Source of the DNA: a bacterium
GTDB lineage: Bacteria > Patescibacteriota > Minisyncoccia > Phycocordibacterales > UBA12088
Length of the DNA stretch: 64,000 nt
Assembly (NCBI GenBank): GCA_003252295.1
Contig: QKEV01000007.1
Span: 80,139-144,138 of the forward strand
Direction: 5' to 3'
The notes under the pieces: generated by a model
The model's database searches: none
The model's input: the letters and a program-made list of their open reading frames with translations, nothing else
Told to the model about the DNA's origin: nothing
Shown: piece by piece, positions 1,739 to 62,371 of the stretch
Position numbering within the stretch: the first letter of the stretch is position 1
Layout of the letters: every line of letters starts with the position of its first letter
Position numbers and translations under genes: made by a program

Positions 1739-3463
1739 CTACAGTGTCTTCACCATGTAGGTATGGTCGAGTTTGTACCCAAGTTTGTTCTTATAGTACT
1801 CACGTACCCCAACACCTGAGATAACTGCTAGTTTTTTACAACCGGATTCACGTGCAATACGTTCTGCTTCCTGCATGAGTCGCATACCTAAACCACGATG
1901 CTGACCCTGGTCACCCTTATTCTTGATTTTCATGAGCTGTCCGTAGGTATGCAGTTCCCGTACAATAGCAGCGTCACGTAAGACTTCTAAGTTACCTGTG
2001 AATGTAGTGGTAGCATCTTTGTCAGGTAAACGTAGTCTACAGAATGCTGCACACTTGTTTTCAGATGTGTGTTCAAAGCTAAGAAAAATCTCTTTTCCAG
2101 TAACGGTGTTGTACTCAATAGTTTGCAGTTCGTAATCATCCAGTTGTACTTGGTTGTTGCGGATCTCACGACAGCGTATACACTCACATTGCCAGTTGTG
2201 CTTTTTCTGATCTTCGAGTATCACTTGTCGAAGGTTAGAAACCTTGCTTCCTGCAATGATGTAACTTGCCGGAATATCACGTATGACTCGCAGGATACGA
2301 ACGTACCTTGGTACCTGTTTTTTCGCCTCACGAAGTACATGTATCAATTCATCGTCAGTGTATGGTTTGAACTCACCTCGCTCCCACATGGTGTAGAGCA
2401 CGCTTCCTTTCAGTACGACACAAGGATACATTTTGAGCATATCCGGATGGTACTTGTTGCCATTAAAAAGATCACCAAACATTTGTATATCCATCTCGGG
2501 TGTGCTGCCGGGTAAATTTGGCATCATGTGGTACACCACCTTGAAACCAGCGTTTCTCATGAGCTCAGTTGCATCAGAAATTTCTTTTGCCGTCATGTCA
2601 CGTTGATTGAATGACAAAACACTATCCTGTAAGTGCTGTACACCAATTTCTATCTTCGTGACACCGAGCCATCGAAGTCTATTCAACTCCTCTTCGTTTA
2701 TATGATCAGGTCGCGTTTCAATAGAGAGACCTATGATTCGAGCACCAGCAGTCTCATTCTCCTGTTGCAGCTCTTCAAGTGATAGTTCAGTGCCAGTCTC
2801 ATACTCATCATCACCCTTAGTAAAGTTGTTGGCAGCACGAAATATTTCAGAGATAAACTCTTCCTGGTAGTCCTTCTCGTATGCACTCCACGTTCCACCT
2901 ATGACAATAACTTCAAGCTTATCTATAGGGTGTCCATTTGCCACGAGTGCTCGCATTCTGTTTTGTACCTGTGCATAGGGATCAAAGTTGTTGGCAAGTG
3001 CTCGTGCAGCAGCAGGTTCTTTCGATAGGTAGCTTTTCGGCATTTCCTTCTCAAAGGGGCAGTAGATACATCTTCCGGGACATTGGTACGGTTTTGTTAA
3101 GAGCGAAACAACAGCAACACCGGAATTACTGCGCACTTTTATTTTCCGTAAAATTTGCTCAACTTCTTTTGATGGCTTTTGCTCACCCTTTTTTACCAAG
3201 TCTTTGTAGTAGGCAACCATCTCAGAGTTTGATGGCATCCTCCTCTCATCGTTTGGATTGCTAGCATGTTTCAAGTCAGGTCCATACGTTGTTGCGGTCT
3301 TTTTTCGAATATCCATAAAGTGTGCGTGCAAATTCTTATCACGCATTATGTTGCACTTAAGCAGTTCTAGGTCTTTTTCTGTTTTTATGTCGTCGAAAAG
3401 CATCGCTGTATCTTTAATGGAATTCAATGATAGTATGTTTGAGTGAAAAAGGAAACAGCGCAA
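1739..3463 (-). CDS. elp3: Elp3-like tRNA uridine(34) modification enzyme: radical SAM domain plus C-terminal GNAT acetyltransferase domain
   Basis: Radical SAM cluster CPGRCIYCP. The length is 574 aa. The C-terminal acetyl-CoA-binding motif is QHRGLGMRLMQEAERIA. The true start is possibly ATG at 3403 (MLFDDIK...), 22 nt downstream of a TACTAT -10-like box. Confidence 0.85.
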   Translation of the reverse strand: MRCFLFHSNILSLNSIKDTAMLFDDIKTEKDLELLKCNIMRDKNLHAHFMDIRKKTATTYGPDLKHASNPNDERRMPSNSEMVAYYKDLVKKGEQKPSKEVEQILRKIKVRSNSGVAVVSLLTKPYQCPGRCIYCPFEKEMPKSYLSKEPAAARALANNFDPYAQVQNRMRALVANGHPIDKLEVIVIGGTWSAYEKDYQEEFISEIFRAANNFTKGDDEYETGTELSLEELQQENETAGARIIGLSIETRPDHINEEELNRLRWLGVTKIEIGVQHLQDSVLSFNQRDMTAKEISDATELMRNAGFKVVYHMMPNLPGSTPEMDIQMFGDLFNGNKYHPDMLKMYPCVVLKGSVLYTMWERGEFKPYTDDELIHVLREAKKQVPRYVRILRVIRDIPASYIIAGSKVSNLRQVILEDQKKHNWQCECIRCREIRNNQVQLDDYELQTIEYNTVTGKEIFLSFEHTSENKCAAFCRLRLPDKDATTTFTGNLEVLRDAAIVRELHTYGQLMKIKNKGDQGQHRGLGMRLMQEAERIARESGCKKLAVISGVGVREYYKNKLGYKLDHTYMVKTL

Positions 3464-4135
3464 GCGCTTCTGAAACTTTCAAGAGACGAGTACGACACAT
3501 ATGCATCTGAGTTTTCTGGTACGAGAAAGTTTTTTTGGCGTGAGCTTGAGTTTCTAAAAGAGTATGTGACACCAGGTTCTAAGATACTTGATATTGGCTG
3601 CGGTAACGGTCGCCTCCTTGATCTCTTTGAGGGTCTAGATATTGAGTACACAGGTATAGACTCTTCAAAAGAGCTTATCGCAATAGCACAAAAAGAAAGA
3701 GGATCACGAGGTGCTTTTATTCATGCTGACGCACTCTCGCTTCCCTTTGAGGATGGTACTTTTGATGTTGTGTTTTCGGTAGCTATGCTACATCATGTGC
3801 CTGATCATAAAAATAGGATGCAGTGTGTTTCTGAGGCGCAGCGTGTTTTGAAGCATGGAGGTACTTGTGTGTTTACTGTCTGGAACACCTTACAGTGGCG
3901 GTTTTTTAAGCAACATCTAGTACAAACAGGTAGAAAACTTTGTGGTCTCTCAGACTTAGATCTTGGTGACATGATCATCACCTTTGGAAAAAAGAAGAGA
4001 AAGCGCTTCGTGCATTCTTTATCAAAGAGAGCACTTCAATCACTCTTTGAGAAAAATAGTTTTTTGGATACTATGGTGAGAGAGGTAAAACGTAAAAGTG
4101 GTTTTGCAAACTTTATAGTAACTGCAAAAAAATAA
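3443..4135 (+). CDS. Class I SAM-dependent methyltransferase, Trm9-like
   Basis: Motif I ILDIGCGNGRLL and motif LHHV. GTG start 6 nt after a TAGTAT box. It is divergent from elp3. Confidence 0.7.
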   Translation: MKKETAQALLKLSRDEYDTYASEFSGTRKFFWRELEFLKEYVTPGSKILDIGCGNGRLLDLFEGLDIEYTGIDSSKELIAIAQKERGSRGAFIHADALSLPFEDGTFDVVFSVAMLHHVPDHKNRMQCVSEAQRVLKHGGTCVFTVWNTLQWRFFKQHLVQTGRKLCGLSDLDLGDMIITFGKKKRKRFVHSLSKRALQSLFEKNSFLDTMVREVKRKSGFANFIVTAKK

Positions 4136-4140
4136 ACATA

Positions 4141-4545
4141 TTGCTTATGGATACAAAAATAATTATTGCTTCAGGTCCGGTGATTGTCGAAGATGGTAAG
4201 GTTCTTCTTGACGAGCACGGTGATACTGATTACTGGAAATTTTGTGGTGGTGAGGTGCAGGACTTTACTCATGACCTCATCGAAAATGCTAAAAACAGAG
4301 CGAAAGAAGAGATTGGTGTTGATGTTGAGATACTTGATGAGACGCCGTTTATTTTTCATACAACAAAGGTAAAAGAGTATGGTAGAGTTGACTACCTTGT
4401 AGTGCATTTTTTGGCAAAGCGAATTGGAGAGGTGGTACCCGGAAGTGACATACGAGAATGGGCATGGATACCCCTTAATGAGCTTCGTGCACACAAACTT
4501 GCTCCAAGTATTATGCCAGCACTCAAACACTTCAAGTTTCAGTAA
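4141..4545 (+). CDS. NUDIX-family hydrolase (probable)
   Basis: GGEVQDF...RAKEEIGV resembles the Nudix box GX5EX7REUXEEXGU, with partial matches. 134 aa. Confidence 0.5.
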   Translation: MLMDTKIIIASGPVIVEDGKVLLDEHGDTDYWKFCGGEVQDFTHDLIENAKNRAKEEIGVDVEILDETPFIFHTTKVKEYGRVDYLVVHFLAKRIGEVVPGSDIREWAWIPLNELRAHKLAPSIMPALKHFKFQ

Positions 4546-4550
4546 AAAAA

Positions 4551-4580
4551 CAAAACGGAGGTGAATTCACCCCCGTTTCA
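4551..4580. terminator. Bidirectional rho-independent terminator hairpin
   Basis: aacggaggtgaattcacccccgtt palindrome flanked by A and T runs. Confidence 0.5.
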
Positions 4581-4601: not shown

Positions 4602-5135
4602 TTACACGGTCGCCATATTTGTACTTATTTTTTTTGCCCACATGAGGGCTCTTCCCTTCACACCATATCTTCTTCCTGGTATGTGCCGTGAAGACCTTGA
4701 GAAACTACAAGGTTTAGCCACGGTACGCCTGATGATTTGTTCATTTTCAGCGTCATCAGATGGACTGAAAATCTCTAAATCATCCGAATCATCTGACATC
4801 AACCAGAAATCGTCAACAATTGGATTTCCTTCAATGTCAGCAATCCCACCTTTAACTTTGCCAATCGAAGATGGGATGCGTGTCTCTCCATCAGGACATC
4901 CTTGAGGTGTGAATCCTTCCTCCCCCCAAATGTGTGGTTTGGTGGTCGAAAGTGCTGTGTGGTTTGTGTGGATACCTTGAACGAATCCAGGCGATTCACA
5001 CCGTGACTCTTCGACTCCAAGACCACGCTGCAAACGCAGTTCAAGTGAAAACGGAACAAAATATTTTTGTCCGCCGATGTTCCTGATGTCTCGTCCGTCT
5101 TTAAATCGATCTTCCAACTCTTGAATTCTTCCCAT
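4602..5135 (-). CDS. Hypothetical protein
   Basis: 177-aa ORF with no recognisable motif. Acidic D/S-rich central segment. Confidence 0.4.
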   Translation of the reverse strand: MGRIQELEDRFKDGRDIRNIGGQKYFVPFSLELRLQRGLGVEESRCESPGFVQGIHTNHTALSTTKPHIWGEEGFTPQGCPDGETRIPSSIGKVKGGIADIEGNPIVDDFWLMSDDSDDLEIFSPSDDAENEQIIRRTVAKPCSFSRSSRHIPGRRYGVKGRALMWAKKISTNMATV

Positions 5136-9202: not shown

Positions 9203-9595
9203 CTAGCTACTCTTGTAGTAGCTAGGTTTTTTGGGTTCTTCAAGTGTGTTGTAATCAATCAATATCTCTTCACCCTCTGCAATATCTCTTTTTGCGTACC
9301 AGTTATAGTCTTTATGTTCAGCATTAGCATTTTGTGAGTGGTTTAAGTACCATCCAACTGGCATGTTTCCAAAATCTTCAGGACATACAAGTGTGTCACT
9401 TCTATCCATACAGTACTCGTCAAATGGTTTTGGTACATCGTTTGTGCTAAGTATTCGTATGCGGTTTTCAAGTAGTTTTTCATCTCCAAATAACCTCAAA
9501 AAAGTTCCTTTTACTATTCCATGAGTAGCAAAAACACCCACACCATACTCTGATGGTTTTAAGATAAATGAAAATTCATTAGTGCTATTTTTCAT
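9203..9595 (-). CDS. SET-domain protein (putative protein lysine methyltransferase), minimal ~130 aa form
   Basis: GVGVFATHGIVKGTFL (SET N-region), YLNHSQNANAE (NHSCxPN-like) and IAEGEEILIDY (ELxxDY). Confidence 0.75.
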   Translation of the reverse strand: MKNSTNEFSFILKPSEYGVGVFATHGIVKGTFLRLFGDEKLLENRIRILSTNDVPKPFDEYCMDRSDTLVCPEDFGNMPVGWYLNHSQNANAEHKDYNWYAKRDIAEGEEILIDYNTLEEPKKPSYYKSS

Positions 9596-16248: not shown

Positions 16249-16707
16249 CTACTTCGTTTCTACAATAAGTTTTCCCACCATTCCCATCTGACGATGCTGT
16301 CCTACAGAACAGTAGTACTCATACTCACCTGCCTTGTCAGCAACAAACGTTACTGACGTCACAGTACCGGGGTTGACCTGTAGGGTTGATGCATTGAACT
16401 CATCAACCACCCAATCATGAAACCCGTCTTTCGACTCAAAGTTGATAGTGACCGTATCACCCTCTTGTACAGTGATTTCAGTTACATCAAAGGCAAAGTT
16501 GGTTCCAGAAACATTAAAAATAACGTTTCCAGTATCATCTTCTACCATTGTTTCAGGTACAGCTTGCTGCTCGACCGTTGTCGTAGTAGCCGGCACCTGC
16601 TCATCCTTTGAAGACGTGAATACAAATACACCTGCCAAGAGAACCAAAATGATTCCGACAATAATGTATGTAGACCTCATAGTACTAATGATTAATCTAA
16701 TAATCAC
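16249..16707 (-). CDS. Membrane-anchored cupredoxin (plastocyanin/azurin-like type-1 blue copper protein)
   Basis: N-terminal TM. Cu ligands FHDW (His) and YEYYCSVGQHRQMGM (Cys-x4-His-x2-Met). Confidence 0.7.
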   Translation of the reverse strand: MIIRLIISTMRSTYIIVGIILVLLAGVFVFTSSKDEQVPATTTTVEQQAVPETMVEDDTGNVIFNVSGTNFAFDVTEITVQEGDTVTINFESKDGFHDWVVDEFNASTLQVNPGTVTSVTFVADKAGEYEYYCSVGQHRQMGMVGKLIVETK

Positions 16708-16796: not shown

Positions 16797-17684
16797 TTAA
16801 TTAAGGAAGTTGGCAAGTTTTCTTGTTGCTCCTTTCCCAAAGGTACTATCTATAAGTCTAACAAAAGGCAGTATGTTACCAGTTACTTGTGCCTTAATAA
16901 AAATATCAATAATCTCTTTCTTATTTGTAAATCGACTTTCGTCCTTAGAAAAAATAAGATCTACAAACTCAAGAAATCTTTTTACTTCTTTTTGTCTGCT
17001 TGTATCAACAGTTTTACCACTCTCGTTAAGTAACTCAAGTTCTTCCTTAAACATCTCGTCATTTTGTATAACTTCGTTAAAAAATCTTTTTGTCATGTAT
17101 CCAGTAAGTGCTTCATCAACTGGTCCAAGAAGTTTATCTTCAGCATTTTGACGACTAAAAATATGTAAACCAGTGCGATAGTTTTGCAACATCCCCTCCT
17201 TTGTTATCTGTAGAGCATTATATGAAGCAAGTCTGTGCCAAAGTTCATGAAAGGTTGTGATTGCTGTCTCAATATCAGATCTACGATCAATTTTCACCTC
17301 ACCAAAAAATGATGAATGACTGCCTTGTAGTAATCTTCCTCCAGAAATCTTTTCTAGTGAACCTTCTTTAAGTAAGTGAATATGTTCATCAGTTATGTTT
17401 ACAAACTCATCTTTACCATACTGTTTCGCATACTCGATTACCGTGTTTTTTACCAGTGCGATCAGTTCCAGATCTTCGGGAGTTTTTTTAAGTTCATATT
17501 TCTTGTACTTACTTGCACCTACTTCTCTATACACCTTTTCAAGAATTACTTCTGGGTCAGTGATCAAAGTCCCATTATCAGAATAGATGCAGTCATGTAA
17601 CCGTGTTTCTAACTCCATATAGTCCATATCATTTTCAGAACCCACTAGTTTTTCGTAGTGTGAATTTAGAAACTTTTCACTCAT
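16797..17684 (-). CDS. HExxH-motif protein, putative zincin-like metallopeptidase. Paralog of the 20211..21149 gene.
   Basis: ITTFHELWHRLAS, then NYRTGLHIFS, then C-terminal TFGKG. These are alignable to LLHEMTHYVS / ARTGYKIVS / SFGKK in the paralog. Leaderless start (TATACT-N7-ATG). Confidence 0.55.
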   Translation of the reverse strand: MSEKFLNSHYEKLVGSENDMDYMELETRLHDCIYSDNGTLITDPEVILEKVYREVGASKYKKYELKKTPEDLELIALVKNTVIEYAKQYGKDEFVNITDEHIHLLKEGSLEKISGGRLLQGSHSSFFGEVKIDRRSDIETAITTFHELWHRLASYNALQITKEGMLQNYRTGLHIFSRQNAEDKLLGPVDEALTGYMTKRFFNEVIQNDEMFKEELELLNESGKTVDTSRQKEVKRFLEFVDLIFSKDESRFTNKKEIIDIFIKAQVTGNILPFVRLIDSTFGKGATRKLANFLN

Positions 17685-20210: not shown

Positions 20211-21149
20211 CTAGGATTCACTCTCAATTGGATTGTTTTCAATGTAGGAAAATATTTCACTTTCGGTATTTTCTTTTGTATCCTCATCTTCTTCTGAAAA
20301 ATATTTTTCAATGAGACGAAGGAGTGCTTCTTCCTTATGTGCGTCCACATGAAGGTATGTTCCTAGTAACCCTAGGATCTTTAAAGATTTTTTACCAAAA
20401 GAATCACCAACTTTCTTTAAAACCAGCAAGTTCTGAGTAAATAATCCTTTAAGAAAATCTGTGTAAACTTCACGTTTATTAGCAAGTGTATCAATAGCAA
20501 TTTTTTCTACAATAGGATTTAGTACGTCAATATACTCCGCATACATATACTCATTATTTTCCAAATCATTCTCTGAAATACCGTATTCACTCTCAAGATA
20601 TTCTTGATTTTCATAAAGTGTTTGTGATACAAAAAAATCAACAAGCAATTCATTTAAACCTATAAAAGCTTTTTTTTGCTGTGGTTTCCAGTTTGAAACT
20701 ATCTTATATCCTGTCCTTGCTACATTAATATTGTCTTGTGATGCAAAAAATTTTCTTTTTGATACATAGTGTGTCATTTCATGGAGTAGTGTTGTAATAA
20801 GTGTTAGCTGATCTGAACATTTATCAATATTGATATAGATAGCATCTTCAACTGAATCAAATATCCCTCGAGAATTTGTTTCAAATTTATTTATAAAATC
20901 ATCCGATGAAAGTAGATGGATTTTTGAACTATCTATAGCAACTTGTTCATTAAAACCAAGTTCTTCAAGTTTATTAATCAAAAAATCGTTTAAAAAATCA
21001 ATCAATTCAAGCACCTCATTACTTTTAGTGATCTCATTTTCAATCGGTTGAGTAAACTGCTCTCTATACTTATCTAAATCAGCTTTTAAGGTAGTTTTTT
21101 CATCTTCCTTATACGTTCGTGTGCCTATAAAATTTGATTCTATACTCAT
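20211..21149 (-). CDS. HExxH-motif protein, putative zincin-like metallopeptidase. Paralog of 16797..17684 (island gene A).
   Basis: LLHEMTHYVS...ARTGYKIVS...SFGKK. ATG at 21149 (MSIESN...) is 7 nt after the TATACT of the leader. The ORF table starts at an upstream TTG. Confidence 0.55.
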   Translation of the reverse strand: MSIESNFIGTRTYKEDEKTTLKADLDKYREQFTQPIENEITKSNEVLELIDFLNDFLINKLEELGFNEQVAIDSSKIHLLSSDDFINKFETNSRGIFDSVEDAIYINIDKCSDQLTLITTLLHEMTHYVSKRKFFASQDNINVARTGYKIVSNWKPQQKKAFIGLNELLVDFFVSQTLYENQEYLESEYGISENDLENNEYMYAEYIDVLNPIVEKIAIDTLANKREVYTDFLKGLFTQNLLVLKKVGDSFGKKSLKILGLLGTYLHVDAHKEEALLRLIEKYFSEEDEDTKENTESEIFSYIENNPIESES

Positions 21150-21189
21150 AAACACAAGTATACACAAAACATCCTAAGACTCGAACTGA

Positions 21190-21219: not shown

Positions 21220-21224
21220 TATTG

Positions 21225-21295
21225 CTGCCGGACTAGGACTCGAACCTAGATTAACGGGACCAAAACCCGTCGTCCTACCATTAGACGATCCGGCA
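21225..21295 (-). tRNA. tRNA-Gln (anticodon UUG)
   Basis: Minus-strand UGCCGGAUCGUCUAAUGGUAGGACGACGGGUUUUGGUCCCGUUAAUCUAGGUUCGAGUCCUAGUCCGGCAG. 7-bp acceptor stem, D-loop AAUGGUAG, anticodon loop UUUUGGU, T-loop GGUUCGAGUCC. CCA is not encoded. Confidence 0.8.
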
Positions 21296-21386: not shown

Positions 21387-22037
21387 TTAACATTCTGGGC
21401 AGATGTAGCCCTCCTCTACTTTCCAGGTGCCATCGAGTGTGTCACCGTACTCACCATCCGCTGTCCAAGTGGTTTTAAAGACACAGCCGTTCTTTATTTC
21501 CAAGTTCTTCCAGAGCGCCCTCCTGTACCTACCGAGTGGTGACAAGCCGTCATCCTGCATACTTGAACGCATGTTTGCCATGAGTCCGCGGTGGGTCACA
21601 ACGAGGATGTTTTGCTCTTCTCTCCTTGCAAGGCACTGGAGTGCATTAAAAGCGCGCTTCTGAAACTCACCAAGGTTCTCCTCATCACTGTAGTGCCAGT
21701 CATTGTTTCCTGCACGGAAGTACAACTGCCCCATCACCCAGAGCGACTTTGGCGAGAGCCAGCTCCTTCCCTCGAGCTCTGACGGTTTCCTCAACTCCGT
21801 GAAGAACTCGTTGGTCTCAAGTGGTGCTGAGAACATCCTGTTTACAATCTGTGCTGTTTCGTACGCACGCTCATAGGGACTCGTGATCACCAGTTCTATA
21901 GGAAGATTTTTAATTTTTTGAGCAATTGCCTCTGCCTGCTCACGACCAAGCTTTGAAAGTGGTGTATCAGGAGACTGATGCACCACTTTTTTGTTCAACT
22001 CTGTCTGTCCGTGTCGTAAAAAGTAAATTGTTTTCAT
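21387..22037 (-). CDS. Histidine phosphatase family protein (phosphoglycerate-mutase-like)
   Basis: N-terminal IYFLRHGQTELN (RHG catalytic motif). Confidence 0.7.
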   Translation of the reverse strand: MKTIYFLRHGQTELNKKVVHQSPDTPLSKLGREQAEAIAQKIKNLPIELVITSPYERAYETAQIVNRMFSAPLETNEFFTELRKPSELEGRSWLSPKSLWVMGQLYFRAGNNDWHYSDEENLGEFQKRAFNALQCLARREEQNILVVTHRGLMANMRSSMQDDGLSPLGRYRRALWKNLEIKNGCVFKTTWTADGEYGDTLDGTWKVEEGYICPEC

Positions 22038-22042
22038 AATAG

Positions 22043-22717
22043 CTACTGTAATGTGCGAAGTTCACGTGGCAAATGTGAGTAATCGTTCCAAACCTTAAGT
22101 CGCCACTTATTAGCTATTGTAGCATTCTCATGGTGGTCAATAATACTCACCCCTGTGTTTTCAGAGCGTAGGAAGCGGAAGAGTCGTGTTGCAGAAGTAG
22201 GTGCCAACTCACCCTCGTACATCATGGTGTTCAAAAGAATCGAGATAAAAGCGCCGTGCGAGACGAGCATAATGCGCTTTTCGGTACGCTGTGTGAGCAT
22301 ATCCATGATCTCTTGAGAACGTACATGCAAATCCTTGTAGTTATCCTCGTCAGTGTAGCGCCAGTCTGGGTTGTCTATGTTCTTGTAGAGTTCATCATGA
22401 AAATCAAGACTCTCTTTTGAGTTGTACGGTTTATTTACAAGCGAAGTTGGAAGCATGTACTCACGTAACGCATCACACTTCTCTAGTGGTACCTGTGTTT
22501 CCTTCTGCACAATGGATGCTGTTTCAAGTGCGCGATCCATAGTACTTGTGATGATCACCTCAGGAGCAAGCTCTACCGCATGATGCGCAAAATGTTCCGC
22601 TTGCTCACGTCCGAGGTCTGTGAGCTGGTCAGTGTCATCTTGGAACACCTTTTTTACGTTTGCCTCAGTTTGGCCGTGTCGAACTATGAATATTTTTTTT
22701 GACGGAGTACTGAACAT
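22043..22717 (-). CDS. Histidine phosphatase family protein, tandem paralog
   Basis: N-terminal IFIVRHGQTEAN RHG motif and ...LVSHGAF. Confidence 0.7.
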   Translation of the reverse strand: MFSTPSKKIFIVRHGQTEANVKKVFQDDTDQLTDLGREQAEHFAHHAVELAPEVIITSTMDRALETASIVQKETQVPLEKCDALREYMLPTSLVNKPYNSKESLDFHDELYKNIDNPDWRYTDEDNYKDLHVRSQEIMDMLTQRTEKRIMLVSHGAFISILLNTMMYEGELAPTSATRLFRFLRSENTGVSIIDHHENATIANKWRLKVWNDYSHLPRELRTLQ

Positions 22718-23765: not shown

Positions 23766-24749
23766 TTATACCCTACTTTTGAGATACTGTTGTACCAAAT
23801 CCTCTACCTCATCCACAGAATTTGTGGCAAAAAGTGCTATACGTAGCTCTTTTGAGCCCTTAAAACCAGTGACGTACGCCTTGAAATGTTTCTTCATGAC
23901 CGCAAAGCTCTTGTGTAAACAGTATGACTCATAGAGACGGCAGTGCTCCAGCATGATACGCAATCGTTCTTCTATAGAGGGTTCTTCACTATCGGCAAAA
24001 AACCACGGCTTCCCAAAGATCCCACGACCTACCATGTAGCCATCTGCGCCTGTTTCCCTACATTTCTCTTCACCCTCTGCCACACTCACTACATCACCGT
24101 TCCCTATAATGCGTACATGTGAGAGTCCCATTCTGTCACGCATTTTTACCAGTTCAGCAACATGTTCCCATCTGGCAGGTACGTTCGACATCTCTTTTCG
24201 TGTACGAGCATGCAGGGTTATCGCACTTGGCTCTTCTCTGAGAATCATAGGAAGCCACTCTTCCAGTTCATTCTTGTTGTATCCTATACGTGTCTTTACT
24301 GAGAGCGGTATCCTACCTGCAAGACCTTTCTTAGCACTCTGTATGAGCTCCACAGCGAGCTCTTTTGTCTTCATAAGTGCTGCACCGGCTCCTTGCTTTT
24401 CTATCGCTGTATGAGGGCACCCCATGTTGATATCCATACCATCGAAACCAAGCTCCACAATGAGGTTTGCAACGTACTCCATCATTTCAGGTTTTGAGGT
24501 AAATACCTGCGCAACGATAGGTCGCTCAATCGAAGAGAAACGCAGGTCTTTCATGAGCGGGTTCTCCTCGTCAGGCATCTTCTGTATCTCACGAGTATGG
24601 TAGAGACCATCAGCAGAGACAAATTCAGTCCACATCACGTCCGGCTTTCCGTACTTCGCAATCATCTCACGAAACGGCGCATCAGTGACATCCGCCATAG
24701 GAGCCAAGCATCCGAAAGGAGTTTCTAAACTATCCCAAAAATTAGTCAT
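23766..24749 (-). CDS. tRNA-dihydrouridine synthase (Dus family)
   Basis: DINMGCP...GAGAALM and TIM-barrel Dus motifs. Confidence 0.8.
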   Translation of the reverse strand: MTNFWDSLETPFGCLAPMADVTDAPFREMIAKYGKPDVMWTEFVSADGLYHTREIQKMPDEENPLMKDLRFSSIERPIVAQVFTSKPEMMEYVANLIVELGFDGMDINMGCPHTAIEKQGAGAALMKTKELAVELIQSAKKGLAGRIPLSVKTRIGYNKNELEEWLPMILREEPSAITLHARTRKEMSNVPARWEHVAELVKMRDRMGLSHVRIIGNGDVVSVAEGEEKCRETGADGYMVGRGIFGKPWFFADSEEPSIEERLRIMLEHCRLYESYCLHKSFAVMKKHFKAYVTGFKGSKELRIALFATNSVDEVEDLVQQYLKSRV

Positions 24750-42746: not shown

Positions 42747-43670
42747 TTATTTCTCGTCCCCAACTGCAAGGAGAACATTTATCGCTTTAGTAATGATCGG
42801 AAGCATGTCATGGTAGAAGTTGAGCTCAAGAATATCAGCAAGCTTAAACCAACGCGCATCATCAAGCCCTCCTTTGTCTTCTAGCACAATATCCTTAAAA
42901 GGTGCTTCAACAAGGAAATAGGTAACATTTTTACGTATCTTTCCTTTTTCCGGATTTGAAGCAACGTACTCATTCTCACCTAGTTTTTCTTTAATCGTTA
43001 CCTCAAGACCCAGTTCCTGTTTGATCTCACGAACCGTACCTTCCTCCTCGGTCTCAGCATCTTCGATGCCACCCTTTGCCAAGGTCCAGTGTCCAAAGAC
43101 ATCATGTACGAGTGCAACATACATATCACCCTCATGTTGGGCATACACCACAGCACCACCTTTTCGCTCAATTGGCATCTTTTCATATGGCACCATTGGC
43201 ATTTTCTTTTTCTTTTTTGATGTCTCGTCCTTACCTGGTTCACCAAGCTCTTTATAAACACCACCAATAACACCATTCACAAATGCACCTGATGAATCAC
43301 CACCAAAATTCTTTGCAAGCTCAATCGCCTCATTAATAGCAACTTTTGCAGGCACCTCAGCGCGATCAGCAAACAAAAGCTCATAGAGTCCTATACGCAA
43401 GATATTTCTATCTACTCGAGCTATCTTGTCGAGTGGCCACTCCGGTGCTGCTTTTGTAATAACAGCATCAAGATCTTCTTGTTTTGTTAGTACACCATCA
43501 AGGAGCCGCTTCATAAACGGCTTGTCTTTTGTAGTATCAGTAAATTCTTTGATGTTGCGGTCAAGAATTACCTCAGGCGTTTCTGCCTCGGTTTTACCTT
43601 CTTCTGTGTTCATGTCCCACTCAAAGAGTGTTTGCAGAACTATTGACCTTGATAGGTGTCTATTCGACAT
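42747..43670 (-). CDS. nusB: NusB-like antitermination domain fused to a C-terminal NUDIX hydrolase domain
   Basis: The N-terminal ~150 aa is a NusB fold. The C-terminal half has the Nudix box GGIEDAETEEEGTVREIKQELGLEV (REx2EExGU). Confidence 0.65.
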   Translation of the reverse strand: MSNRHLSRSIVLQTLFEWDMNTEEGKTEAETPEVILDRNIKEFTDTTKDKPFMKRLLDGVLTKQEDLDAVITKAAPEWPLDKIARVDRNILRIGLYELLFADRAEVPAKVAINEAIELAKNFGGDSSGAFVNGVIGGVYKELGEPGKDETSKKKKKMPMVPYEKMPIERKGGAVVYAQHEGDMYVALVHDVFGHWTLAKGGIEDAETEEEGTVREIKQELGLEVTIKEKLGENEYVASNPEKGKIRKNVTYFLVEAPFKDIVLEDKGGLDDARWFKLADILELNFYHDMLPIITKAINVLLAVGDEK

Positions 43671-50750: not shown

Positions 50751-53246
50751 TTATTTTGAATCAAAGTGCTCGAATGCTTTTGCAAGAGCAATCTTTGTGC
50801 CGATACGATTACTTGAGTAGCTGTAGTCAATACACTCCACGAGAATACCCAGTACCTTTTCAAAATCCTCATTAGACCAAGATGCTGTCTTGTACACGAG
50901 GTCCTCGTTAGGTGTACGATTCCCCTCAATACGATCCTTGTATACCTCATCAAGTTCTCGAACCACGAGCGTGATGAAAGCAGCCACATCAACACCGCGT
51001 GTTGTAATGCTGCGCATAAGATCGAACGCCTCCTTCTTTTTTACGAGTACGAGGTAGTCGAGGAATGCTGCCACAAGATTTTGTGACGGCGATCCATTAT
51101 TGTTTTTCTTTGGAGCTCTCTCTGCCTGCTCACGGTGAGCAGGTGCTTGAGGTCGCGGCATATCTGCAACAGGTTGGCTAGTACCATTTCTATGGGTAAG
51201 TGTTTCCTTCATTGCCTTTGGTTCAACACGAAATGGTCGTTGTACCTCCTCTTCCTCAGCGTCTTCTGTTCGAGCAGTAGCCTGTGCAACTGGTTCGGTA
51301 TTTGCTACAGAAACTTGTGCCTCAGCAGTACCCTGTTCAGAAAGAAGTAGCTCAGCACGCTCTTTTGAGAGCAGTATCCAACCATCTTCACGTGGATACT
51401 CAGCCTTAGCTTTCTCAATAAGGTGCGACATAAATGTAGCAACACCCTCTCCAGATGCTATAAGTGTAGCTTGAATAAGTCGGAACGCTTCTGGTGAAAG
51501 AAGAATATTCTCACCATGTGACATTTCCTCAATCTCTGATGGTTCATGACTATTCTGGGAGATAGCCGTTGCACTCACATGTGTGACCTGACTTGCAACC
51601 GGCGCCATCATCTCAACAACACGCGTCCCTTTATCTTGTTCATTTTCAGTATGAGCAAAGACCATACGAATACGCTCTGCCACCTGATAACGTGTCGCAA
51701 AGTAAGCAATAAGTACACTCAACGCAAAGACTCCAGTCCAAAACGTTACCGTTAGAAGCGGTCCCGCCTCAAAACCAGTGTATGGTACCTGATCAAGCGT
51801 AATAGTTCCTCCAGACTTTGTTATAGTTTTACCAAGAATGATGGTTGGATTTGGATCATTGTCGTCGTCATCATCGTCATCATCATCGTCACAATTTAAA
51901 CAACTACCTCCTCCTGTCTTAACAGCAACCGTTGCTGAACAGGTAACTGAGTTACCATCAGCATCAGTAAAGGTTCCTGTATAGGTTGTCTTGTCGTTAA
52001 CAATAACGCTCTTGTTCCCATTCAAAGCAACAGAACCTATACCGTTATCGATCACCGCTGTTACGGCTTCATCACTCGTCCAAGTGATCACAGAGGTGTA
52101 TCCCTTGGTATCTTTTGTTGGTGAAGCACTCATCGTACAAGCAAGTTCCGGCTCGTCCGTATGGTGTCGTACCGTCAATGTTGCCTCACAGGTAAGTGGA
52201 TCACTTCCGTCCGTTGTGTAGAACGTTCCTACGTATGTTGTCGTAGTTGCTGGTGATACCAAACTGGAACCAAGGACATCCAAACCTGTACCGATCTCTG
52301 TAATATCTACAGACGATACAAGGTAACTGTCCCAGCTAATGGTTGAGCTGTCACCATCATATATACTTGTTGGATCTGCACTTAGTTCACACCATGGTTC
52401 ATCCGGTTCCTCTTGTCGTTCAAAAGCAACACAGATAGGTACAACTGAGTTTGGTGAAGAGTTATCCGGGTACACGTGATGTACCACTGCAACTGCAGTT
52501 CCATCTTCAGTAAGCGTAAATGCATCAGTAAAGGTGTCCTTCTCCATTGTCTCAACAACAAAGTCATCAAGCTCGGTTGTAGGACCAACAGATGCTAGTA
52601 CGTCACCGTTCCCGTCACGCACCTCTGTGTCCCATTTTTCATTGAACTGCTCAGAGTATATACGATCAGCATACCCATCCCATGATGCAGTGTATACATT
52701 ATATGTACCTGCTAGTAGGGCTGTATTTGAAACAAGCTCGTAAGGACCGGCACCGTTTGAGAAAAGTGTCGTGTCCCAGTTCTTATCACCGGCACTGTTG
52801 AACTCAACAACAATCGTGTCATCAGAAGCGGTAAACGGGCATGCAGGCACCTTTGGCTCCTCTGGAGGACGTACGGTAACCGTTGCTGAACATTCGTAGT
52901 AGTCAGAGGTGCTCGCCATTGTTGCACGTGCTATGTACGTCGTTGTCTCAGTTGGCGAGACGCTAGTGGAACCTGTAAGACCTGGCCATTCCTCACCTGG
53001 TAGCTGATCAATCGTTACCGTGATAGTGTCAGGATCATCTTCAGGACCCTCAAAAAATTGCCATGCAAGTGTTGATGACTCACCCTGATCGATCACCTCG
53101 GGTGTTGCTGTCATGTCAACACAGTGCCATGCAAGCACACTACTTGGTGCTACCGCTAGCACTCCAAAGAATGCCGCTACGGCCACCATGTATACTGCGC
53201 TCTGTTTTATGTATGCAACCATGATACTTTTTTTATAATTATTCAT
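50751..53246 (-). CDS. Large membrane / cell-surface protein: signal, Thr/Ser-rich extracellular beta-rich region, poly-Asp run, internal sorting-signal-like motif, one TM and a ~330-aa cytoplasmic C-terminal domain
   Basis: CLNCDDDDDDDDDDNDPNP, then VPYTG + hydrophobic LLTVTFWTGVFALSVLIAYF + RYQVAERIR, then a soluble domain. Confidence 0.5.
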   Translation of the reverse strand: MNNYKKSIMVAYIKQSAVYMVAVAAFFGVLAVAPSSVLAWHCVDMTATPEVIDQGESSTLAWQFFEGPEDDPDTITVTIDQLPGEEWPGLTGSTSVSPTETTTYIARATMASTSDYYECSATVTVRPPEEPKVPACPFTASDDTIVVEFNSAGDKNWDTTLFSNGAGPYELVSNTALLAGTYNVYTASWDGYADRIYSEQFNEKWDTEVRDGNGDVLASVGPTTELDDFVVETMEKDTFTDAFTLTEDGTAVAVVHHVYPDNSSPNSVVPICVAFERQEEPDEPWCELSADPTSIYDGDSSTISWDSYLVSSVDITEIGTGLDVLGSSLVSPATTTTYVGTFYTTDGSDPLTCEATLTVRHHTDEPELACTMSASPTKDTKGYTSVITWTSDEAVTAVIDNGIGSVALNGNKSVIVNDKTTYTGTFTDADGNSVTCSATVAVKTGGGSCLNCDDDDDDDDDDNDPNPTIILGKTITKSGGTITLDQVPYTGFEAGPLLTVTFWTGVFALSVLIAYFATRYQVAERIRMVFAHTENEQDKGTRVVEMMAPVASQVTHVSATAISQNSHEPSEIEEMSHGENILLSPEAFRLIQATLIASGEGVATFMSHLIEKAKAEYPREDGWILLSKERAELLLSEQGTAEAQVSVANTEPVAQATARTEDAEEEEVQRPFRVEPKAMKETLTHRNGTSQPVADMPRPQAPAHREQAERAPKKNNNGSPSQNLVAAFLDYLVLVKKKEAFDLMRSITTRGVDVAAFITLVVRELDEVYKDRIEGNRTPNEDLVYKTASWSNEDFEKVLGILVECIDYSYSSNRIGTKIALAKAFEHFDSK

Positions 53247-54854: not shown

Positions 54855-55044
54855 GTATATACCCTTATATTACAATATATTTATATATATGTCAAGTTTC
54901 TGCACTTGTTTCTATTGACATATAAAGTTAAATATGATATTTATATGGTATATTACCAAATATTTTTGGTGCCCCCTGTTCATTAACAAACAGTATGAAA
55001 ATTGCTTCATATTGCTTGTTGACTTGTGGTACCAATATAAAATT

Positions 55045-56124
55045 ATGAATGATTCCAATACACAACGAAGTGAAAAGATAGCAGCAAAAATTTTACGTGT
55101 ACTTGCTGTTATTGGTCTTGTTGCAGTTCTTGCACTCGCTTCATGGGTTATAGTTCGTGGTACTCAATCAGTTCCAGCGGTACGTGAAAGTATGAGCGCA
55201 GCAGTCACTGCGATACAGAGTATCTTTACAAGTGCTCCGGAAGAATCTCTTATCTTTGAACTTGAAGAGAGAACAGTTCCAGTCGGTAAAAAAACTACCC
55301 TTGCATGGAACTACACCGGTGAGACAATGCCAGAATCATACTTGTTTAGCTATACTTGTGGCACAGCTGCTGAACTCACCATGGTTGATAATGAAGGTTG
55401 GCACCTTCTCACATGCGGGGAAAAATACAAGACTAGCGATCAGAGTATTACCGTAACAGCAGCAAACACCAAGACACGTTTTGCAGACCTTGAACTCATG
55501 GTTGCAGCAAATGAACTTACAGACACAACAGTTATCAGTATTGTTAACACTGATATTACTGCAGACACAGAAAGCACAGATACTGCTACAGCTTCTTCAA
55601 ACACCACAACAGAAACGGTAGCAAGTAATACAAACACAAACACTGTACCAACAACTGCTGCACCTATCGCAGTTACTACCCCTACTCAGGGCCAGTCAAC
55701 CCAAACAGTAATACAGCGCACGACAGTACCAGTCTACACTGGACCAGCAGACCTTGTGGTAAATATTGAAGAGACTGGTGTCATTCTTGATGTTGATGGT
55801 GAGGACACTTTTTTCCCTGTTGATGAAATACCTACAGACAAAGTTGCTGGAGTTGTCTTTACTGTTACCAACCGTGGTGGTGAGACATCTGAAATATGGA
55901 CATTTGACGCAACACTACCTATCGAAGGTGATGATGAGTACGAGTACACTTCACCAAAGCAAATGCCACTTGCATCAGGTATGGAGATTAGGTTTACACT
56001 CGGCTTCGATGAACTACTCGAAGAAAATGATGGAAAGATTACTATCGAACTTGACCCAAACAATGATGACGATAAAACATCTAATAACGAAGACTCCGTT
56101 GTTATTGATATAGATGTTAAGTAA
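55045..56124 (+). CDS. Secreted / membrane-anchored Thr-rich protein, hypothetical
   Basis: Start taken at MNDSNTQRSEKIAAKILRVLAVIGLVAVLA (signal anchor). T/A/N-rich linker and C-terminal beta-rich domain. Confidence 0.45.
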   Translation: MNDSNTQRSEKIAAKILRVLAVIGLVAVLALASWVIVRGTQSVPAVRESMSAAVTAIQSIFTSAPEESLIFELEERTVPVGKKTTLAWNYTGETMPESYLFSYTCGTAAELTMVDNEGWHLLTCGEKYKTSDQSITVTAANTKTRFADLELMVAANELTDTTVISIVNTDITADTESTDTATASSNTTTETVASNTNTNTVPTTAAPIAVTTPTQGQSTQTVIQRTTVPVYTGPADLVVNIEETGVILDVDGEDTFFPVDEIPTDKVAGVVFTVTNRGGETSEIWTFDATLPIEGDDEYEYTSPKQMPLASGMEIRFTLGFDELLEENDGKITIELDPNNDDDKTSNNEDSVVIDIDVK

Positions 56125-61384: not shown

Positions 61385-62371
61385 CTACAACTCAGTAACT
61401 CTAAAATGGCTACCGTCAAAAATAGCAAGGGTGTTGATATCAAGTAAACGAAAATCAAGATTCGGTTCTTCTATTATGGTCTGAATATTTCGCTGCGATC
61501 TGTTATCGAGTTCGACAACATACAGTCCACTCCTGGTGAGAACTATCACAACATCATTTCGATTTGGATAAAAATTGTAGCGGAGTATGTCATCTTCCCA
61601 CTGAATAGCAAGTTGATCCTGACACCCTCCTTCAGAGCAGAAGTAGTATGGGACCACGTCGTTTTCCCGTGCCCACACAGCATAGAGATCTCCATGTTCA
61701 AGCCAGGTCACAATACCGTCATGCTCACGAACCATCTCTTTTTCCGCAAGCTTGCTTGAGCTTGCCAGCGTTACAAGCCAGTCAGGGTAACGAATCTCAG
61801 TAACAATGGTCGTACTTGGGTAACGTATACCACGTATATACTCATATGTTGAAGTAGCAACCTCTACCTCAAACTGATCATGATCCTCTTCAAAAAACTC
61901 CACCTTATCTAGGTACTCCGGATTTGTAACCTCAGTTGTCGTACTGATACCTGTTTCAGTATCAAGCATGGTGAGTGTAGAGGTGGCATTAATCATTACC
62001 CATTCAAAAACCTTTGGGAGCATAAATATTTTCGCCTCAGTCACCAGTTTTGGTTCAACACGAAGCACCTTGACCCAGCTCTGATACTCCGGGCGTTCAA
62101 CACGTACCGCATAGTACCTATTTGGAAGCAACCCTTCGATAAACGTATTCCTGAGAAGTGCACCGTTGTTTTCAACAAACTCATCATCAAGATACACTGA
62201 TGTGTATGGTATATCAGAATGAAGATATATACCTCCCGTCTGAATAACACCCAGGGCATCATCAATTCTGTACCCTCTTGAGTACCCTATAAGGACTGGA
62301 GTACAAAGTAAAAATGTAAACAGTAAAAACCATAGTACCCTCCTGCGTATTTTTTTTGATAACGGCTTCAT
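61385..62371 (-). CDS. Hypothetical secreted / membrane-anchored protein
   Basis: N-terminal TM VLWFLLFTFLLCTPVLIGY. No motif recognised. Confidence 0.45.
   Translation of the reverse strand: MKPLSKKIRRRVLWFLLFTFLLCTPVLIGYSRGYRIDDALGVIQTGGIYLHSDIPYTSVYLDDEFVENNGALLRNTFIEGLLPNRYYAVRVERPEYQSWVKVLRVEPKLVTEAKIFMLPKVFEWVMINATSTLTMLDTETGISTTTEVTNPEYLDKVEFFEEDHDQFEVEVATSTYEYIRGIRYPSTTIVTEIRYPDWLVTLASSSKLAEKEMVREHDGIVTWLEHGDLYAVWARENDVVPYYFCSEGGCQDQLAIQWEDDILRYNFYPNRNDVVIVLTRSGLYVVELDNRSQRNIQTIIEEPNLDFRLLDINTLAIFDGSHFRVTEL

Follow-up and report, generated by a model that had tools for sequence, protein, structure and literature searches.

A divergent Elp3 and Trm9-family gene pair in Patescibacteria likely forms a two-gene module for wobble-uridine modification

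Does a bacterium possess the Elp3-Trm9 route by which 5-methoxycarbonylmethyluridine (mcm5U) is made at the wobble position of tRNA? The question is raised by a 64-kb stretch of contig QKEV01000007.1 from a candidate-phyla-radiation bacterium (the window, by which the whole stretch of analysed DNA is meant), in which a gene for an Elp3 protein lies head to head with a gene for a class I S-adenosylmethionine (SAM)-dependent methyltransferase that is followed by a Nudix hydrolase gene. A preliminary description of this sequence had proposed a bacterial Elp3 with a Trm9-like partner. In a 2020 review wobble modifications derived from 5-carboxymethyluridine (cm5U) were attributed to Archaea and Eukarya only, and Bacteria were assigned 5-carboxymethylaminomethyluridine (cmnm5U), 5-methylaminomethyluridine (mnm5U) and 5-aminomethyluridine (nm5U) (PMC7694415); in a 2017 review, bacterial homologues of the methyltransferases that partner Trm112 were stated not to be detectable. 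Our literature searches found no bacterial Trm9 family, no mcm5U in bacteria and no study of Elp3 or MnmE/MnmG in Patescibacteria. Based on sequence comparisons, the locus is likely to be a two-gene wobble-uridine module of Patescibacteria (Paceibacteria-like), in which Elp3 and a Trm9-family enzyme would lead through cm5U to mcm5U. Family profile, active-site residues and conserved pairing all support the earlier proposal.

The host was identified as a bacterium, as the window encodes bacterial RpoB/RpoC, DnaE, GyrB, FtsQ, DprA and a YkuD L,D-transpeptidase. Close homologues of Elp3 and of the methyltransferase carry the NCBI names Candidatus Paceibacterota or Patescibacteria, and the GC content around the pair (0.42) is the same as that of the remaining window. 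Elp3, the methyltransferase and the Nudix hydrolase are genuine genes with strong family matches and not chance open reading frames (ORFs).

The longest ORF for Elp3 starts with TTG and encodes 574 aa (1739-3463, minus strand). Translation almost certainly begins at the ATG at 3403 instead, since public gene calls use this codon and homologues of 554-560 aa cover 100% of the resulting 554-aa product. The protein scored 547.2 bits against NCBIfam model TIGR01211 (cut-off 350; model positions 36-522 of 522), and the Pfam domains Radical_SAM (PF04055, 1.4e-17) and Radical_SAM_C (PF16199, 1.6e-20) were recognized. The GNAT match, which is marginal when taken alone (PF00583, Acetyltransf_1, residues 521-563 of the longest ORF; 21.4 bits, cut-off 20.7), falls in a region that is also inside the TIGR01211 and PDB alignments. 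Together with the motifs CPGRCIYC and QHRGLG, the TIGR01211 score bears out the earlier description of a full-length Elp3 with a radical-SAM CxxxCxxC motif and a GNAT domain. The best solved relatives in PDB were the Elp3 proteins of Methanocaldococcus infernus (1e-115) and Dehalococcoides mccartyi (3e-103), with eukaryotic structures at about 1e-89; the Elp3 alignments (1e-115 to 4e-88) ran to the last residue. Bacterial Elp3 is already known, and Elp3 has been shown to be tRNA-specific (PMC6367351; PMC13315578); in Patescibacteria it is annotated automatically. Identity with MnmL (YtqA) was rejected, TIGR01212 reaching 75.9 against a cut-off of 180 and covering residues 239-415 only.

The methyltransferase (Methyltransf_11, 1.4e-25) is a class I enzyme encoded 39 bp from Elp3 in the divergent orientation, as had been described. 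Its motif I, LDIGCGNG, had been likened to that of Trm9, and Trm9 of Yarrowia lipolytica (YlTrm9) indeed has VDIGCGNG. Some 100 homologues with a length near 230 aa were found (37-68% identity), nearly all from Patescibacteria, and 38 of these were used to build a family alignment and profile (A1). When PDB was searched with this profile, YlTrm9 (5cm2_Z) ranked second at 8e-23, query residues 25-229 being aligned to chain residues 2-193. The match takes in the FSxTR helix at the N-terminus and all of the C-terminal half, which binds substrate, whereas nearly all other PDB methyltransferases align to the SAM-binding half alone (roughly residues 40-150). Comparison of the A1 profile with YlTrm9 by hhalign gave a probability of 99.6% (E 1.2e-24) over 185 columns with 25% identity. 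An AlphaFold2 model of the protein (predicted local distance difference test, 92) has a Rossmann-type fold, and a beta-hairpin at residues 176-191 bears the R/Y/H residues. The family is large: when 1.84 billion cluster representatives were searched exhaustively with HMMER, at least 1565 clusters (50% identity) were returned at E<=1e-30.

The active site could be compared with published mutagenesis of Saccharomyces cerevisiae Trm9 (ScTrm9), the activity of which needs R29, D72, H116, W145, W168, R241, Y243 and N271 (Letoquart 2015, PMC4678810). In the same enzyme H115 contributes, while H24, K31, R122, E148, Q149 and D270 are dispensable (PMC4678810). The YlTrm9 sequence was rebuilt from the printed alignment, and its numbering matches the Yarrowia residue numbers of that paper. 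The correspondences are listed in Table 1. Six equivalents of residues essential in ScTrm9 recur unchanged in 36-38 of the 38 A1 members, and the positions of K31, R122, E148 and D270, dispensable in yeast, are unconserved there. Constraint at precisely those positions which Trm9 requires is predicted by a shared substrate. In the best 150 of the 1565 representatives, the equivalents of R28, H117, H118, W147, R188 and N223 are kept in 132-150, the W168 position is W in 108 and the Y243 position is Y in 68, each of these being the commonest residue. The commonest 11-residue signature in this set, YRDHHWWRYHN, is that of YlTrm9 at each position in the truncated crystal construct. A further key residue listed for the methyltransferase is Y17.

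Table 1. Residues of ScTrm9 probed by mutagenesis and their equivalents in the window methyltransferase
ScTrm9	Window protein	Conservation in A1
R29	R28	37/38
D72 (YlD83)	D73, SAM-binding acidic residue	38/38
H115	H117	36/38
H116	H118	36/38
W145	W147	38/38
W168	F181	F 27, W 11 of 38
R241	R188	38/38
Y243	V190	V/L/I/Y
N271	N223	38/38

Homologues with at least five of the six core residues were termed signature-positive. The phylogenetic placement recommended in the preliminary description was carried out as a crude neighbour-joining tree, which has no support values and includes only one authentic Trm9: in it the signature-positive sequences enclose YlTrm9, with every signature-negative one outside. 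A much closer resemblance to YlTrm9 than that of the window protein was observed in a signature-positive subgroup (L046, L064, L052, L074, L048, L067 and L047), with matches of 1e-24 to 2e-32 against 5.6e-11 for the window protein; no Elp3 is present within any of these loci, and the ORF of L046 has 532 aa.

Conservation of the gene pair was approached from both sides. Among eight methyltransferase homologues sampled on long contigs, a divergent Elp3 gene stands immediately upstream in six (43-66% methyltransferase identity), and every other neighbour differs. The gap between the two genes is 25-43 bp in five of the six, and in the sixth the start codons overlap. In the seventh (37% identity) a distance of 4.2 kb separates the methyltransferase from an upstream Elp3 gene of the same strand; around the eighth (34% identity) no Elp3 was found within 5 kb. 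A metagenome scan with the family alignment gave 80 loci, 57 of them signature-positive, and the pair was counted in the 50 signature-positive loci for which 400 bp or more of sequence was available upstream. A divergent Elp3 within 800 bp was found in 27 of these 50 compared with one of ten signature-negative loci (Fisher p=0.014), and an Elp3 anywhere in the locus in 29. The linkage spans more than one clade, because the metagenome contigs range from 35 to 76% GC; on the GC-rich contigs that bear the pair the neighbours (iPGM, galactokinase, FadD-like, RecQ) are indecisive for bacteria versus archaea. From the Elp3 side, a signature-positive methyltransferase was divergently adjacent in two of four loci (two of three look-ups at 59-61% identity). 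Linkage of Elp3 and the methyltransferase is frequent, far above chance and not universal; the lack of conservation for which the preliminary description had proposed a co-occurrence check was not what these samples gave.

Several features of the paired loci were observed in passing. At 5000-5003 of locus L012 the called starts of Elp3 (minus strand) and the methyltransferase (plus strand) overlap in a CATG palindrome, and this pair adjoins RtcB, archease and NIF3 genes, a tRNA-repair context. In two unrelated loci the Trm9-like gene is preceded by a gene for a RecQ-family helicase, which is its immediate upstream neighbour in L013 (3206-4987) and lies beyond an intervening Elp3 gene in L081 (2184-3611). 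Downstream of Elp3 in the window lie genes for a zincin and YkuD, and these are not conserved with the pair.

An ordinary small-molecule or lipid enzyme of the UbiE/MenG kind, placed beside Elp3 by accident, is what the public names of the methyltransferase would imply: JGI mostly uses 'ubiquinone/menaquinone biosynthesis C-methylase UbiE' (two members are called 'TRM9') and NCBI 'class I SAM-dependent methyltransferase'. Likewise, its Pfam and NCBIfam matches are generic or UbiE-type only, and the top matches in a single-sequence PDB search are natural-product methyltransferases. However, the NCBIfam models, including those for UbiE/MenG, all scored far under their cut-offs (TIGR01934, 59.6 against 158.35; PRK00216-type models, 50-57 against 216-327), and the UbiE/MenG models cover the SAM-binding half only. 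In addition, the Trm9 active-site signature is kept, and an Elp3 neighbour in 27 of 50 independent metagenome loci cannot be put down to chance. Clustering with small-molecule methyltransferases, the outcome that the preliminary description had set against its own proposal, was not seen; instead the profile match to Trm9 is full-length. The UbiE-like reading is largely refuted here and we consider it very improbable. Two other identities were rejected, MnmM, the specific family of which (PF06962) is absent from the Pfam matches of the protein, and CmoM, which is not among the PDB or NCBIfam matches listed for it.

Assignment of the pair to a Trm9-type tRNA pathway has a number of observations against it. 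In the single-sequence PDB search YlTrm9 was found only at rank 13 with 1.3e-9 (reverse search, 5.6e-11). By profile an uncharacterised Methanosarcina mazei methyltransferase (3sm3, Q8PUK2) was placed slightly above Trm9; it was the top profile and Foldseek match and aligned over the full length, but it is without the Trm9 HH/W/R/N signature and may represent a sister family with another substrate. The window protein itself has Val at the Y243 position and Phe, an aromatic residue still, at that of W168. About 40% of the signature-positive methyltransferases have no Elp3 nearby, and conversely Elp3 occurs without an adjoining methyltransferase in L002 (a GTDB locus from the genome-contig scan with a single Elp3 protein) and in L098. 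To these must be added the dependence of known Trm9 enzymes on Trm112 and the association of some pairs with glycan genes, both of which suggest other explanations and are considered below.

Trm9 is strictly dependent on Trm112 in yeast (PMC4678810) and likewise in Haloferax volcanii (HvoTrm9; PMC6144793). With a hidden Markov model derived from five bacterial homologues of Trm112 in PDB, no Trm112-like ORF was identified among the six-frame ORFs of the 64-kb window and 95 loci (with flanks of +/-6 kb), the best match having E=0.17. The YlTrm9 residues in contact with Trm112, V59, F78, V102, A110, P112 and F116, correspond to K47, E68, I93, P101, E103 and F107 of the window protein, and across the methyltransferase family charged or polar residues occupy three of these six positions. 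Because no Trm112 was found in the window or the loci and the contact patch is partly charged or polar, the methyltransferase is suggested to be a stand-alone enzyme, although a Trm112 gene might lie outside the sequence searched.

A related explanation is that the module acts on U34 of tRNA by some other chemistry, with a Trm112-like activator encoded elsewhere, another Elp3-derived intermediate, or a product of the 5-methoxycarbonylmethyl-2-thiouridine (mcm5s2U) or 5-carbamoylmethyluridine (ncm5U) type. The search for Trm112 took in only 64 kb of this genome and the flanked loci, the yeast and H. volcanii enzymes have the strict requirement just cited, the Y243 and W168 equivalents are changed, and in H. 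volcanii the cm5U intermediate is quickly diverted into other products (PMC6144793). Weighing in the other direction, half of the hydrophobic positions that Trm112 would shield are charged or polar throughout the family, none of the 95 loci has a Trm112 gene with the pair, and no variation is seen in the residues by which carboxylate and uracil would be positioned. We regard such an alternative chemistry as unlikely, though deserving of consideration.

The glycan association concerns both members of the pair. Three homologues of the methyltransferase (P0350, P0379 and P0387) carry a C-terminal WecG/TagA/CpsF domain (PF03808, 2e-49 to 2e-60), in L007, L008, L010, L096 and L097 the pair lies in clusters of genes for glycosyltransferases, epimerases and polysaccharide synthesis, and the partnerless Elp3 genes of L002 and L098 are in similar clusters. 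The Patescibacterial pair might thus have been recruited to an envelope glycan or polysaccharide, where it would carboxymethylate a sugar and esterify the product with methyl rather than act on tRNA. Such a role is rated very unlikely, because the fused proteins retain the Trm9 signature including the uracil-reading residues. Moreover, the Elp3 is a full-score orthologue of tRNA-specific enzymes (PMC6367351), the context is not a glycan one in the window, L003, L005 and L012 (RtcB and archease stand beside the last), and Patescibacterial genomes are rich in glycosyltransferase clusters and fuse unrelated genes, an example in the window being NusB-Nudix. The clusters surrounding the pair or a lone Elp3 (L007, L008/L009, L010/L011, L096-L098 and L002) were observed to include glycosyltransferases, epimerases, Wzy/Polysacc_synt and CofD. 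The three fused proteins are mutually distant members of the family that have still kept the Trm9 signature.

For the Elp3/Trm9-family module, which remains the preferred explanation, the following pathway is proposed. The stand-alone Elp3 would carboxymethylate U34 at C5 to cm5U, by use of SAM (at the radical-SAM [4Fe-4S] cluster) and acetyl-CoA (in the GNAT/KAT domain); this step is proposed because of orthology with archaeal Elp3, for which the reaction has been shown, and with D. mccartyi Elp3, for which it has been proposed. The Trm9-family enzyme would then transfer the methyl group of SAM to the carboxylate of cm5U to give mcm5U, a step we infer from the conserved active-site residues, and it would probably do so without Trm112. 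After the structural model of Trm9, D73 would bind SAM, Y17, R28, H118 and R188 would position the carboxylate, and H117 and N223 would read uracil O4 and O2/N3, with W147 stacking on the base and F181 on a neighbouring nucleotide. The sole tRNA gene of the window encodes tRNA-Gln(UUG) (21224-21295, minus strand), a U34 tRNA which bears mcm5s2U in eukaryotes, and is a plausible candidate substrate of the module.

The two genes are separated by an intergenic region in which the heptamer ATAGTAT (3430-3436) yields TAGTAT on the plus strand (3431-3436) and TACTAT on the minus strand (3435-3430). The preliminary description had reported overlapping -10 boxes at 3431-3437; the hexamers are present and the coordinates agree within one base, but a generic sigma-70 scan for -35 and -10 elements calls no promoter in 3404-3442, since a -35 hexamer is absent. 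Among the five closest clade members the intergenic regions cannot otherwise be aligned, and the 8-9-mer (T)GATAGTAT is all that they have conserved. It precedes the methyltransferase start codon by exactly 6 nt in four of these five loci, and the motif is kept in L003, L005, L007 and L008. In more distant loci hexamers resembling TATACT or CATACT are often found 6-10 nt before the start codon. The exact 9-mer TGATAGTAT occurs once in the window. The start codon that follows (T)GATAGTAT is GTG (three cases) or ATG and there is no room for a Shine-Dalgarno sequence; together with the 6-nt spacing this implies that the methyltransferase mRNA is probably leaderless, with TGATAGTAT as a putative extended -10 element. 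The complement TACTAT is a possible -10 element for Elp3. The pair would probably be co-expressed from the 39-bp region acting as a bidirectional promoter centred on TGATAGTAT.

Archaea offer the closest precedent, with clustering of Elp3 and Trm9 genes in Sulfolobus solfataricus (PMC2584109) and synthesis of mcm5U by HVO_1032/Trm112 in H. volcanii (PMC6144793). As in the archaeal system, the window Elp3 is without Elp1, 2, 4, 5 and 6 and has an archaeal protein, that of M. infernus, as closest solved relative, the genes are clustered, and the predicted chemistry is conversion of cm5U to mcm5U. The differences are that the host is bacterial, that Trm112 was not found in the window or the 95 loci and the contact patch is partly polar, and that the genes are arranged head to head, relatives sharing a control region of 25-43 bp. 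With eukaryotic Elongator and Trm9-Trm112 or ALKBH8-TRMT112 the window proteins share the radical-SAM and KAT architecture of Elp3, the Trm9 fold, motif I (DIGCGNG) and the equivalents of R29, D72, H115/H116, W145, R241 and N271. Unlike the eukaryotic systems, the window module has no accessory Elongator subunits, no Trm112 found in the sequence searched and no AlkB or RRM domain, and its methyltransferase, with about 25% identity to YlTrm9, has the Y243 to Val and W168 to Phe changes. The cluster had been labelled 'eukaryote-like'; the stand-alone Elp3 and the Sulfolobus clustering (PMC2584109) make it equally archaeon-like.

Among bacterial systems, the Elp3 of D. mccartyi (PDB 5L7J) is similarly a bacterial, stand-alone protein; we found no partner methyltransferase described for it in the literature consulted, whereas the window Elp3 has a conserved Trm9-type neighbour. 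The Firmicute radical-SAM protein MnmL (YtqA) and methyltransferase MnmM (YtqB), which acts on xm5U34, belong to the pathway for 5-methylaminomethyl-2-thiouridine (mnm5s2U). The combination of an Elp3-like radical-SAM protein with a class I methyltransferase is the same, and TIGR01212 matches the radical-SAM half of the window Elp3 at 2.9e-21. The score of that model is nevertheless well below its cut-off, as given above, the carbon chemistry differs, and the window Elp3 has a KAT domain, which to our knowledge MnmL does not. In Escherichia coli CmoM, a Methyltransf_11-type enzyme, converts uridine 5-oxyacetic acid (cmo5U) to its methyl ester (mcmo5U). SAM-dependent methyl esterification of a carboxylate on the C5 side chain of a wobble uridine is thus common to CmoM and the predicted reaction. 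Pairing of the window methyltransferase with Elp3 sets it apart from CmoM, which is absent among its listed matches; we know of no Elp3 in the cmo5U pathway.

We see in the locus a likely new bacterial member of an established pathway, probably independent of Trm112, and no new kind of system. A large bacterial family bears the Trm9 catalytic signature, and it is coupled to Elp3 in Patescibacteria and on unassigned metagenome contigs (35-76% GC). Confirmation would extend mcm5U-type decoding to bacteria, offer mechanistic studies a Trm9 that is naturally independent of Trm112, and provide a cheap annotation rule for proteins now called 'class I SAM-dependent methyltransferase' or 'UbiE'. A broader proposal can be advanced only tentatively: Patescibacteria, which form a very large radiation of bacteria with reduced genomes, may decode split codon boxes with mcm5U or a derivative, by means of a stand-alone Elp3 and a Trm112-independent Trm9, perhaps in place of the canonical bacterial MnmE/MnmG route and its products cmnm5U and mnm5U. 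If this proposal is right, Bacteria would have their first mcm5U pathway and Trm9 its first representative active without Trm112.

The coordinates of the features are collected in Table 2. The Nudix gene likely starts at ATG 4147 and not at TTG 4141, and is probably co-transcribed with the methyltransferase, the stop codon of which lies 11 nt upstream on the same strand. On this arrangement Elp3, methyltransferase and Nudix could be viewed as a three-gene functional cluster in which the Nudix hydrolase would, for example, clear a by-product. Nudix follows the methyltransferase in no other locus, however, and the gene downstream differs in every relative; the only tblastn matches, in L003/L004 and L033, are weak or distant (about 3 kb). 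A three-gene unit is the least probable of the explanations considered. Of the preliminary account, the statement that a Nudix gene follows the methyltransferase holds, while its membership of the cluster does not. The hairpin at 4551-4580 adjoins the end of the methyltransferase-Nudix unit; its effect on the Nudix transcript is uncertain because there is no T-tract on the plus strand.

Table 2. Features of the Elp3/methyltransferase locus, numbered from the first nucleotide of the window
Feature	Position	Strand	Basis and remarks
Elp3 (radical SAM + GNAT/KAT; predicted tRNA U34 carboxymethyl-forming)	1739-3403	-	554 aa, TIGR01211
GNAT acetyl-CoA-binding motif QHRGLG (aa 501-506)	1886-1903	-	pattern; inside PF00583 match
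Three-cysteine motif CECIRC (aa 406-411), linker between Elp3 domains; candidate Zn site	2171-2188	-	pattern only
Radical-SAM [4Fe-4S] motif CPGRCIYC (aa 108-115)	3059-3082	-	pattern search on translation; inside PF04055 match
Divergent intergenic region, 39 bp, with motif TGATAGTAT at 3428-3436	3404-3442	.	sequence; proposed promoter role
Trm9-family SAM-dependent methyltransferase (predicted cm5U34 to mcm5U34)	3443-4135	+	GTG start, 230 aa
Nudix hydrolase	4147-4545	+	132 aa, PF00293 6.6e-12
13-bp GC-rich hairpin with T-tract, intrinsic terminator of convergent gene 4602-5135 (-)	4551-4580	-	terminator scan, sequence

Other genes of the window include those for TrmD, Dus, RNase III and several aminoacyl-tRNA synthetases. 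The Dus dihydrouridine synthase gene (23766-24749) is close to two tandem paralogous histidine-phosphatase genes (His_Phos_1; 21387-22037 and 22043-22717, minus strand), which adjoin a clamp-loader gene. No Pfam match at E<=1e-5 was obtained for five large ORFs, namely 50751-53246 (831 aa), 54934-56124 (396 aa), 20211-21167 (318 aa), 16797-17684 (295 aa) and 61385-62371 (328 aa). A single ORF of 307 aa (42747-43670, minus strand) encodes NusB in its N-terminal part (1.6e-35) and a NUDIX domain in its C-terminal part (1.9e-13); joining of this transcription antitermination factor to a Nudix hydrolase is an unusual fusion. A SET-domain protein (PF00856; public gene call L001) is encoded at 9203-9595 (minus strand) and a cupredoxin/plastocyanin-like copper protein at 16249-16707 (minus strand), both of which seem unexpected in a reduced Patescibacterial genome.

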